From positions 1 to 43,223 of the forward strand of contig JAZRZQ010000065.1 in assembly GCA_045601445.1 (NCBI GenBank): a stretch of 43,223 nucleotides of DNA. Direction: 5' to 3'. Under the pieces are notes generated by a model that saw only the letters and a program-made list of their open reading frames with translations, had not been told where the DNA came from and did no database searches. This stretch comes from Eubacteriales bacterium (GTDB taxonomy: Bacteria; Bacillota; Clostridia; Oscillospirales; SIG627). This document shows, in pieces, positions 11,718 through 35,059 of the stretch. Numbering within the stretch: the stretch's first letter is position 1; every line of letters starts with the position of its first letter. A program made the position numbers and the translations under genes.

Positions 11718-11988
11718 AAGGTCGCACTATCCGGGGAGTCAGCGGTGCCTTGTACCCTCAATCCGCTATAGAGGGGGAGATGCCCTTTTAAGGGGAGCGA
11801 TCGTGTTGCAGCCTCTTTCAGAGAAGCGTAGAGAATTGGGTCTTGTGCAATTGAATGCCGTGAATCATGTCAGGTGGGGAACCAAGCAGCATTAAGCGGA
11901 AGTTTCGATGTGCCACGAGGGTGCCTTATTTGAGCCGATTTGGGGAGAAGCGAATATTTTCGTTTTTTCGAGAAAGGGTGTGCGATCT
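11718..11988 (+). ncRNA. ffs: signal recognition particle RNA, long Bacillus-type (scRNA/ffs) with an Alu-like domain
   Basis: The conserved domain IV sequence GTCAGGTGGGGAACCAAGCAGC is at 11869-11890. The 5' region GGTCGCACTATCCGGGGAGTCAGCGGTGCCTTGTACC resembles B. subtilis scRNA. The gene sits just upstream of dnaX, as in Bacillus. The ends are approximate (+/- 10 nt). Confidence 0.85.
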
Positions 11989-33512: not shown

Positions 33513-34028
33513 TTAGATGAATTCCGCTTTGCAACGAAGAGCAAAGAGCTTTCGGAGCCATTCCGGCCTATTATCTATTATTTCTTTTAACTTCAGCAGA
33601 GAACGCTTCCCGATCCTTCGATCGAGAACAGCAAACATCTCTACGAGGGGATTGTCGGAAAAAAGGCTCGCTTGAACGTCTTGATTGCGATATTGTTTTA
33701 ATGCATCCGTAAATTCCTCATCCGTATATTCTGTTCTGTCGAGAATCGTGTAGCGATTCAGCAAGGTCCAGTATTCTTCCCAGTATTCCATACGACCAAA
33801 GGGATCGGGATTTGTTTTGTAGCCGCATGCAATAAAATAACTGTTTACCGTTTCCCAGGAAAAACGCTTAAAGAGCTGATCGTCAACGTAGACCTCGAAC
33901 AGGCAGCAGCCATCCATTCCTTTGTAGGTTGTGCAGTTATAACGGATTCTTTGAGACAAGGAGTCGGCGAGCATTTCATCTTCCAAGTATTTTCTCATGC
34001 CGCTCCAAGAAGAGAGAATTTTGGGCAT
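33513..34028 (-). CDS. conserved-looking hypothetical protein (171 aa), rich in Trp, Tyr and Cys
   Basis: G-rich RBS and its own terminator. It vaguely resembles a widespread uncharacterised family, but I cannot name that family reliably. Confidence 0.65.
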   Translation of the reverse strand: MPKILSSWSGMRKYLEDEMLADSLSQRIRYNCTTYKGMDGCCLFEVYVDDQLFKRFSWETVNSYFIACGYKTNPDPFGRMEYWEEYWTLLNRYTILDRTEYTDEEFTDALKQYRNQDVQASLFSDNPLVEMFAVLDRRIGKRSLLKLKEIIDNRPEWLRKLFALRCKAEFI

Positions 34029-34199
34029 TTGATACCCCCCCTTTTTTGTACTTTCTTTTACTTCCGGGGAACATTGAAAATTGAAAATCTAAAAAGTAAA
34101 AATCGACATCCTTCTGTCGAAGAATGTCGATATTTGTCTATGGGCTACAAAAAAGATATTTTCGGCAGTTTTGTCGTATGAATTTGAACTCTTACAGAA

Positions 34200-34368
34200 A
34201 ATGAAATCCTTGCTGACGCAAGGATGAAATCAGCTAACGCTGATGAAATCTTCGGCTTTGCCTCAGATGAAATTAAATCCACCCATCCGCCGTCGAGGCG
34301 GATTTCACCCAACGAAGTTGGATTTCATCGTCGAAGACGATTTCACCCACCAGCAAGGGTGGATTTAG
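34200..34368. repeat. array of seven mini-hairpins built on the 9-mer GATGAAATC (4 copies), then its reverse complement GATTTCAYC (3-4 copies)
   Basis: Motif copies sit at 34201, 34223, 34242 and 34266 (+ orientation) and at 34301, 34321, 34339 and 34362 (inverted). Hairpins: 34206-34225, 34229-34244, 34248-34268, 34285-34303, 34309-34321, 34327-34341, 34347-34362. Confidence 0.8.
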
Positions 34369-34374
34369 TTGAAA

Positions 34375-34405
34375 CCGACAGATTCCTGTCGGAATCTGTC
34401 TTTTT
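34375..34405 (+). terminator. strong intrinsic terminator with its T-tract on the + strand, abutting the tRNA-Ser 3' end
   Basis: 10-bp stem GACAGATTCC/GGAATCTGTC (34377-34400) with a 4-nt loop, then TTTTT at 34401-34405. On the minus strand only GGTTTC follows the stem. Confidence 0.7.
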
Positions 34406-34406
34406 C

Positions 34407-34498
34407 TGGCGGAAAGACAGGGATTCGAACCCTGGAGTGGGTATTAGCCACTACACGATTTCCAGTCGTGCGCCTTAGACCAGCTCAGCCATCTTTCC
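34407..34498 (-). tRNA. tRNA-Ser (anticodon GGA), class II with a long variable arm and an encoded CCA
   Basis: The reverse complement folds as follows: acceptor GGAAAGA/TCTTTCC, anticodon stem CACGA/TCGTG, loop CTGGAAA, variable arm GTGG..CCAC, T-arm CAGGG-TTCGAAT-CCCTG, then G-CCA. Confidence 0.93.
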
Positions 34499-34558: not shown

Positions 34559-35059
34559 TTATTTTTTATTAAAAAAAAGATGAGAATGCAGGAGGAAAGA
34601 TACGATCAGGCCGTTAAAAAGACCGCTGAAGATTGCGACGATGATAAGGATCGGAGCGTAGAAGAGAATAGCATCGCTTTGCATGATGAGCCAAAAGACA
34701 ACGCACTGCGATAAAACGTGAAACAATGAACCAAATACGCTGATGATCCAAATAAAGGATCGGTTGAAAACTTTTTTTAACAGCCACATACAAGCGAGGG
34801 AACAGATGGCGCCGGAAAGACTGTAACACAGGGTGATTAAGGAGCCGTGCGAAAAGAAGACGACAGCGACTCGGATCAAAGAAACCAAAAAAGCACTGCC
34901 TGCCGACTCGGTATAAAGAATCAGCAAGATGATCGAATTGGCAAGCCCAAGCTTGATCCCGGGGATCGGGAAGGAAAAAGACAACTGTGCTTCAAGGATC
35001 GACAGCGCGATTGCGCAGCTACAGTACAGCGAGAGTCTGGTTAAAGTCTTGATCTTCAT
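34559..35059 (-). CDS. Gx transporter family membrane protein (Hpre_diP_synt_I-like)
   Basis: N-terminus LTRLSLYCSCAIALSILEAQLSFSFPIPGIKLGLANS and 5 TM helices. It lies 1 nt downstream of the NusG-II gene, the usual partner. Confidence 0.8.
   Translation of the reverse strand: MKIKTLTRLSLYCSCAIALSILEAQLSFSFPIPGIKLGLANSIILLILYTESAGSAFLVSLIRVAVVFFSHGSLITLCYSLSGAICSLACMWLLKKVFNRSFIWIISVFGSLFHVLSQCVVFWLIMQSDAILFYAPILIIVAIFSGLFNGLIVSFLLHSHLFFNKK

Follow-up and report, generated by a model that had tools for sequence, protein, structure and literature searches.

A Gut-1 RNA motif behind a tRNA-Ser gene is half of a larger two-array element of gut Clostridia

The subject of this study is a structured intergenic region at 34200-34405 of a 43,223-nt stretch of DNA from a Eubacteriales bacterium (assembly GCA_045601445.1, contig JAZRZQ010000065.1; the whole stretch is referred to as the window), which lies beside a gene for tRNA-Ser. 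The array of small hairpins found there is real, non-random and conserved, and belongs to a known family: its tRNA-proximal half is Gut-1 (RF01706), and the region as a whole is a copy, without cargo, of a modular element that is repeated in gut Clostridia. The real unit of this element has a defined layout and is about twice the size of the Rfam Gut-1 model. A scan with the Rfam models placed Gut-1 on the minus strand at 34297-34371 with 72.5 bits, against a gathering threshold of 50, and over the full length of the model (positions 1-77), while a second match, on the plus strand at 34199-34278, remained below threshold at 42.3 bits. Because the RF01706 match exceeds the threshold the element is already known, and the novelty proposed in a first-pass annotation of this DNA, which had itself allowed that a confident Rfam match would make this a known element, was not borne out.

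The structural features that define Gut-1, three consecutive hairpins with RUGAAAU between them and stems that covary, are present. Gut-1 was described by Weinberg et al. in 2010 from 43 representatives as occurring in the 'human gut only', and was judged to be an RNA, not cis-regulatory, without assigned function or host; the published motif covers only about 77 nt and is known from unassigned human-gut reads (PMC2864571). No other paper on Gut-1 turned up in text searches. In the alignment of Weinberg et al. the flanks contain, in order, the 3' end of a tRNA, a terminator, Gut-1 and then an array with the reverse-complement linker. The copy in the window resembles the published motif in its full-length match, in its three hairpins with RUGAAAU between them and in having relatives from gut organisms, but differs from it in having a second array, a long-range helix and a hairpin at the tRNA end within the same unit, together with a linkage to tRNA genes and to a gene for a four-helix-bundle protein. 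The two-array anatomy, the placement after tRNA genes and the link with the four-helix-bundle gene appear to be undescribed in the searchable literature.

Organisation of the element in the window

Read from the tRNA gene, the element begins one base past the end of tRNA-Ser with a hairpin (T1) and continues with a first array of short hairpins (array A), a centre that holds one arm of a long-range helix (P1), a second array (array B), a conserved tail and a terminator (T2), as set out in Table 1. The motif that repeats through both arrays, RTGAAAT, has 39 matches in the whole window, and seven of these fall inside 146 nt, where about 0.13 would be expected at the window-wide rate. The copies reported in the first-pass annotation were all recovered, on the plus strand at 34201, 34224, 34243 and 34267 and on the minus strand at 34302-34308, 34322-34328 and 34340-34346, and the degenerate eighth copy reads as ACUAAAU in the minus-strand sequence at 34369-34363; the positions on the two strands bear out the flip in orientation that had been described. 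All seven hairpins were found as well, with coordinates within about 1 nt of those claimed. The one that had been called imperfect, at 34250-34266, contains two adjacent mismatches, which are C.U/U.C on the plus strand and tandem G.A/A.G on the minus strand. The long-range helix had been given as 11 bp and is in fact longer, with 14 nt at 93% complementarity between 34271-34284 and 34357-34370. The terminator next to the tRNA likewise has the 10-bp stem assigned to it (34377-34400, with a loop of 4), followed by TTTTT on the plus strand. If an intrinsic terminator is taken as a G+C-rich hairpin with a U-tract, then T1 is one on the plus strand only and T2 is one on the minus strand; here T1 has its U5 tract in the plus direction only, and on the minus strand it has A5 before it and GGUUUC after it.

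Table 1. Features of the Gut-1-containing element in the window (array sequences are given for the minus strand)
Feature	Position	Strand	Basis or detail
tRNA-Ser(GGA), encoded CCA	34407..34498	-	ARAGORN; Rfam tRNA 54.7 bits
Hairpin T1, 10-bp stem and 4-nt loop	34377..34405	.	Sequence inspection, terminator scan
Array A (Gut-1 motif)	34297..34371	-	RF01706, 72.5 bits
Array A linkers	ACUAAAU 34369-34363; GUGAAAU 34346-34340; AUGAAAU 34328-34322; GUGAAAU 34308-34302	-	
Array A hairpins	34362-34347; 34339-34329; 34321-34309; fourth at 34301-34287	-	
P1 3' arm	34271..34284	-	Pairs with 34357-34370; competes with local hairpin 1 (34347-34362)
Array B	34201..34273	-	Composite profile match 34374-34202, 88 bits, full length
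Array B linkers (AUUUCAU)	34273-34267; 34249-34243; 34230-34224; 34207-34201	-	
Array B hairpins	34266-34250; 34242-34231; 34223-34208	-	Tandem G.A/A.G with AAA loop; GUUA loop; GUCA loop
Conserved tail, ~63 nt	34136..34198	-	~GAGAGUUCRAAUUCAUACGNAAAAC..GAAAAUAUCUUUUUU, then GUAGCCCAUAG / GUAGCCC(A/U)UAG
Hairpin T2, intrinsic terminator	34092..34131	-	13-bp stem (terminator 34131-34102), then UUUUACUUUU

When folded, the region gave -119.3 kcal/mol on the minus strand (z -8.1 against shuffled sequence) and -113 kcal/mol on the plus strand (z -6.8), and the minimum free energy folds of both strands contain P1. As had been stated, the gap holds no credible coding sequence, the only open reading frames (ORFs) being short ones that cross the array or the tRNA. 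Two such frames run through the hairpin arrays, one of 84 codons at 34224-34478 on the plus strand, which also runs through the tRNA, and one of 55 codons at 34145-34312 on the minus strand; these are spurious ORFs of the kind that the first-pass annotation described for databases.

The composite element and its linked four-helix-bundle gene

A scan of species-representative genomes for three copies of GTGAAAT yielded 120 loci, many of them from gut metagenome-assembled genomes (MAGs), with carriers in Clostridia, Oscillospiraceae, Ruminococcaceae, Acutalibacteraceae, Christensenellaceae and Akkermansia. When a composite profile was run over all fetched loci, it found 118 full copies, of which 75 are non-redundant. 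This homologue search confirmed the general picture that had been suggested from the window alone, of an organised, tRNA-linked element that is widespread in Clostridia and functionally uncharacterised. In order along the tRNA strand come a tRNA ending in CCA, one base, an A-run and hairpin T1, usually followed by a U-run; then '(C)AACGAAAU' and a segment termed X, leading into array A with its short hairpins and GUGAAAU linkers; and lastly a centre with a second complement of X, followed by array B with AUUUCAC linkers and three or four hairpins, mostly of 17-18 nt. Paired arrays follow this forward-then-reverse order, the one exception being a complex locus with several arrays (L227). All related loci that were tested give a Gut-1 match to array A on the tRNA strand, above threshold in 11 loci, and a stable T1 hairpin lies upstream of all 34 unbiased copies. 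A same-strand tRNA gene ends 22-38 nt upstream in 20 of 33 unbiased copies and a nearby opposite-strand tRNA gene in none of the 33; the tRNAs behind which these copies sit are of 13 amino-acid types.

Three tandem Gut-1 matches above threshold, about 440-470 nt apart, were seen in an Akkermansia sp. MAG (L124, 2312-3306), with a gene of the PF05635 family about 3 kb downstream of them. As this locus is from Akkermansia, Gut-1 is not confined to Firmicutes.

Several copies of the element are followed by a gene of about 115 aa, the product of which starts MAESKLREL.. and belongs to PF05635 (23S rRNA intervening-sequence protein) and TIGR02436 (four-helix-bundle protein); its nearest relative in the PDB is 2RLD, with five chains as deposited. 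The gene follows 6 of the 34 unbiased copies and occurs in 12 of the 120 loci picked by DNA pattern alone, L142, L229 and L147 among them. The association was also tested in reverse, with 80 fetched metagenome loci that encode this four-helix-bundle subfamily. A full element was found at most 420 nt (200-420 nt) upstream of the gene in 52 of the 62 loci with enough upstream sequence, same-strand tRNA genes lay upstream in 42 of the same 62, and, with the subfamily clustered at 90% protein identity, the element was directly upstream in 27 of 28 clusters. The genes past the four-helix-bundle gene vary (MazG-like, AAA, DUF2087, ParA-like and membrane proteins), and no second gene is conserved there. 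Literature searches returned nothing on the function of PF05635 beyond the Avd protein of diversity-generating retroelements (DGRs).

In the three named loci, PF05635 genes adjoin pure heptamer tandem arrays (L142 972-1048, L229 251-547, L147 686-734) made of GTGAAAT / GAGCAAT or ATTTCAC / ATCTCAC. Those of L142 and L229 are present in both orientations, and the taxa include an Oscillospiraceae MAG and a Chlorobi MAG, the latter being the source of L147. The link of PF05635 with GTGAAAT-type repeats is thus suggested to be wider than Gut-1.

The element is duplicated as a unit, a property that bears on what it is. In L241-L244 a common unit of about 1015 nt, at 93-98% identity, contains T1, arrays A and B, a promoter, the four-helix-bundle gene and a MazG-like gene; to its left stands a gene for tRNA-Pro, for tRNA-Arg or for a protein, and the similarity begins right after the CCA. 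In L241 and L243 this unit is followed at once by a second T1 and array A, so that the cargo lies between direct repeats. Four further units stand in tandem in L258, four copies with a 240-nt period are found in the alignment of Weinberg et al., two near-identical units, each with its T1, are present in both L152 and L183, and at least two arrays occur within 8 kb in about 15 of roughly 60 loci. These observations, the inclusion of T1 in the duplicated unit, and the fact that the window and L161 have the element in common and the flanking genes not, all favour a reading in which this is a repeated or mobile element at the DNA level, a mosaic intergenic repeat of the REP/BIME (repetitive extragenic palindromic sequence/bacterial interspersed mosaic element) or BOX type that is copied to sites after tRNA genes. 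Its hairpins would then matter in single-stranded DNA, as in the lagging-strand template or a recombination intermediate, with the four-helix-bundle protein in an accessory role, and the unit would bring its own bidirectional terminator and often a promoter.

We regard this reading as a strong rival to the one proposed below, and as somewhat less probable than it. Genes for a transposase, an integrase or an HUH nuclease are not a consistent feature of the neighbourhood, the sites gave no identifiable target-site duplication, and blastn gave no match to the element in plasmid and phage collections. There is also no sign of recent bursts, since copies within one genome can be highly diverged (L146). 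In viral contigs about 10 of 120 pattern matches proved to be genuine copies; tRNA genes lie near half of these, and a four-helix-bundle gene follows one. The looser pattern TGAAAT..RTGAAAT..RTGAAAT gave mostly chance matches in viral contigs, with just one locus fitting the composite profile.

The same duplication is relevant to the DNA that lies beyond array B in the window. The tail is common to L161, L233, L234, L308, L241 and L258, in which it comes after array B or after the cargo gene and before the next T1. By position, T2 corresponds to the T1 of a truncated second unit, its counterpart being the T1 of the next unit in L258. The tail module has a vague likeness to a tRNA T-arm, yet does not have a T-arm fold. 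Past T2, at 34041-34088, lie tandem repeats (GAAAATT x2.9 and CTTTCTTGTA x2.3, with heptamer-like repeats at 34069-34088), which on the minus strand read AUUUUCA AUUUUCA, like the start of a truncated second unit (..UUUUCAAUG); heptamer runs of this kind are also present in the flanks of the Gut-1 alignment of Weinberg et al.

The other neighbours of the element in the window are a gene for an SF0329-family protein (PF25753) past it, at 33513-34028 on the minus strand, for which an exact look-up returned no record, and an upstream gene at 34559-35059, for which the best homologue has only 42% identity; on these two grounds the source organism is poorly represented in databases. A bacterial large signal recognition particle RNA (RF01854, 172 bits) is encoded elsewhere in the window, at 11722-11985 on the plus strand.

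Conserved pairing, strand and transcription

The hairpin sequences differ nearly everywhere between copies, and their pairing is kept. With inward pairing among the relatives, the 117 distinct hairpin sequences of array A are 92.6% Watson-Crick and the 175 of array B are 86%, as against 28-29% (maximum 34%) for shuffled hairpins. The window and L161 have the T1 stem, P1 and the tail in common, while their hairpins are different yet paired, with compensatory changes such as CCGCC/GGCGG versus TCGCC/GGCGA. Segment X can pair in two ways, with its local partner, forming hairpin 1, or with the distal centre, forming P1. Among 47 elements with 7-8 classes of X, P1 has on average 12.4 contiguous pairs with the centre of the same element versus 7.6 with centres of other classes, so that the long-range helix which had been described as cloverleaf-like is conserved and covaries among loci.

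The two C-GAA-G loops that had been picked out in the window proved to be a feature of the whole family, in the form c-GNA-g or c-GNNA-g on whichever strand has ATTTCAC as its linker. This is the tRNA strand for array B and the opposite strand for array A, and about half of the tetraloops are not GNRA. The sequences d(cGNAg) and d(cGNNAg) are hyperstable DNA mini-hairpin motifs, and their mirror-image orientation in the two arrays is a further point for a repeat that acts as DNA. The loops of the two arrays, in elements inspected by eye, are not complementary, and kissing loops between A and B were rejected.

In two loci the linkers have changed in both arrays together, to GTGAAGT/ACTTCAC in L306 (~1270-1480) and to GTGATAT/ATATCAC in L300 (625-1040). 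Such concerted change could reflect pairing between the linkers of A and B or co-evolution with a binding protein, and it too counts in favour of the DNA-level repeat. A ladder fold, in which A linkers pair with B linkers in nested register, would agree with these concerted changes; in mixed-linker elements, no consistent register emerged from the R/Y positions.

The strand on which the element would act is indicated mainly by array B. Among its 175 distinct hairpins the non-Watson-Crick pairs on the tRNA strand are A.G (44), G.A (42) and G.U (43), and the complementary types are C.U/U.C (8) and A.C/C.A (14), giving totals of 129 versus 22. In a first sample of 37 elements, the better fold was that of the tRNA strand for 47 of 77 B hairpins and that of the opposite strand for 10. 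Array B thus favours the same strand as the Rfam annotation of Gut-1. The G.U and G.A pairs are equally compatible with RNA, a point which counts against the DNA-level reading.

This bias disfavours two readings in which RNA is made from the other strand. The first-pass annotation had proposed an independent plus-strand RNA of roughly 200 nt, running through both arrays and ending at the T5 terminator at 34405. Consistent with it, the U-tract of T1 points in the plus direction only in this copy, the A-run before T1 is conserved in relatives, one position of P1 is a G.U pair when read on the plus strand and a mismatched C.A on the minus strand, and L161 conserves a weak candidate promoter (TTGTCT-17-TATTTT, ~34135-34163). 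This candidate scores 8 of 12, under the cut-off of the promoter scan, which found no sigma-70-type promoter on the plus strand upstream of the array, and relatives have the tRNA-strand promoter of the next gene at the same position. The Rfam score on the plus strand is below threshold, the hairpin to which the T5 tract belongs terminates in both directions in most relatives, and the array B pairs (86 G.A/A.G and 43 G.U against 22) point the opposite way, which together make an independent plus-strand transcript very improbable.

Hardly more probable is a pair of convergent Gut-1 small RNAs, with A made from the tRNA strand and B from the opposite strand, each in the GUGAAAU sense. Each half does match Gut-1 in its own orientation, as the two window scores show, one array B of L258 is above threshold on the opposite strand, and in the Rfam consensus structure the U.G closing pair beside the linker exists only in the GUGAAAU sense. 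Weighing on the other side, the tRNA strand clearly gives array B hairpins the better structure, scans found no promoter for the opposite strand and none within the element for divergent or convergent small RNAs, and no terminator lies between the arrays.

The remaining possibility raised at the outset, a structured 3' trailer of the tRNA on the minus strand, is the reading favoured by the evidence here. Upstream of tRNA-Ser, at 34550-34522, the minus strand has a sequence that resembles a promoter, TTGATT-17-TATTAT, with a TG upstream. Given this promoter, a T1 that has no U-tract in the tRNA direction and the terminator T2, co-transcription of a trailer of about 310 nt is the simplest reading for the window. 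In 42 non-redundant copies surveyed downstream of array B, an extended -10 promoter (TGnTATAAT) on the tRNA strand comes straight after the last array B linker in 11, and a tRNA-strand terminator lies within 170 nt past array B in 18.

Proposed role and comparison with known systems

On balance we propose, with slightly less than even confidence, that the element is a structured minus-strand 3' trailer of tRNA-Ser which presents its linkers to a multimeric protein, possibly the four-helix-bundle protein. In the window copy the tRNA-Ser promoter would drive transcription of the whole element, as a trailer of about 310 nt, and the element would work as a folded single strand, probably as RNA. 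Fast-folding mini-hairpins of arbitrary sequence would serve as spacers, which would display the conserved heptamer linkers, about five per array, to the multimeric partner, and P1, where it forms in place of local hairpin 1, could fold array A into a cloverleaf-like junction. The best candidate for the partner would be the PF05635 four-helix-bundle protein (Avd / 23S rRNA intervening-sequence family), which is encoded directly behind the element elsewhere.

Several observations weigh against this proposal. The binding of the protein to the element is suggested purely by gene neighbourhood, and no four-helix-bundle gene is present anywhere in the 43-kb window. Array A has no strand bias (G.U 9 versus 13), and the mirror-symmetric loops, together with the loop types, fit a design at the DNA level at least as well as one in RNA. 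Most relatives have a T1 that makes a good terminator in the tRNA direction; as T1 terminates and the next promoter starts past array B, the arrays would there lie in a transcriptionally quiet gap, and because each tandem unit has its own T1, RNA output from distal units is unlikely. The tRNA trailer and the mobile DNA repeat are not mutually exclusive.

Among known systems, REP/BIME with their RAYT (REP-associated tyrosine transposase) proteins and the pneumococcal BOX lie between genes where transcription units end, and some of them form tandem or inverted clusters. The present element is like them in being short, modular, hairpin-forming and intergenic, and in having a single associated protein gene that is flanked by repeats. 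Unlike in REP/BIME, conservation is confined to the linkers and the stems vary, with no GTAG-type signature and no HUH or Y1 transposase, and the associated gene, unlike RAYT, encodes a 115-aa helical bundle without known catalytic motif. REP/BIME have a conserved imperfect palindrome of about 35 nt with a fixed 5' tetranucleotide, and membership of that class was rejected, as stems differ among copies and hairpins and the sole recurrent neighbour gene is that of PF05635.

The likeness to 23S rRNA intervening sequences and to the Avd protein of DGRs lies in the PF05635 family itself and in a gene that stands beside a stable-RNA gene and an inverted-repeat structure. Avd is a pentameric nucleic-acid-binding barrel. 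The gene linked with Gut-1 differs from these in lying outside the stable RNA, in having its own promoter and in having no reverse transcriptase nearby. The repetition of a short single-stranded motif with spacers or hairpins between copies is shared with the TRAP-binding GAG repeats and with CsrB/RsmZ, and the 3'ETS-leuZ (3' external transcribed spacer) sponge derives from a tRNA transcript; unlike in all of these RNAs, here a second array has the complementary motif, and the partner is a candidate only.

Integron attC sites also keep their structure while their sequence varies; they separate cassettes in direct orientation and act as folded single-stranded DNA. Conservation of structure over sequence is common to both, but the R''/R' core-site pair (RYYYAAC ... 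GTTRRRY) is missing from the ends of the present element, and its internal organisation is entirely different. An ..UUCAAC-like sequence occurs at the T1-proximal end only, with no inverse site past array B, and attC was rejected accordingly; no integron integrase, such as heads an integron array, was noticed nearby, in an analysis that did not search systematically for integrase genes. Nor is this a CRISPR (clustered regularly interspaced short palindromic repeats) array, in which repeats of 24-48 nt would alternate with unique spacers of like length, as the repeats are 7-nt linkers and the spacers, of 9-18 nt, are self-complementary, or a ToxI-like type III toxin-antitoxin system, in which identical tandem repeats, a terminator and the toxin gene would make up a single transcription unit, as the hairpins are non-identical and it is a promoter, not a terminator, that precedes the four-helix-bundle gene.

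A broader and rather doubtful model would combine these elements. Gut-1 would be no free-standing small RNA but half of a two-array partner, of about 180 nt, of a PF05635 pentamer, and the two together would form a self-propagating cassette placed after the CCA of tRNA genes in gut Clostridia, with a simpler form in Akkermansia; the protein gene would be present in master copies and missing from many cargo-less ones, such as that of the window.

Taken alone, the copy in the window is an ordinary further example of a motif catalogued in 2010, and it is the follow-up that adds value. Gut-1, formerly described from the human gut only and with no organism, is now placed in named lineages, and its linked family, PF05635, has the Avd subunit of DGRs as its only understood member. 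If the link between the two is functional, then two orphan families, Gut-1 and the intervening-sequence / four-helix-bundle proteins, would gain their first handle at the level of function, and the element would add to the selfish or regulatory modules that are seen attached to stable-RNA genes.

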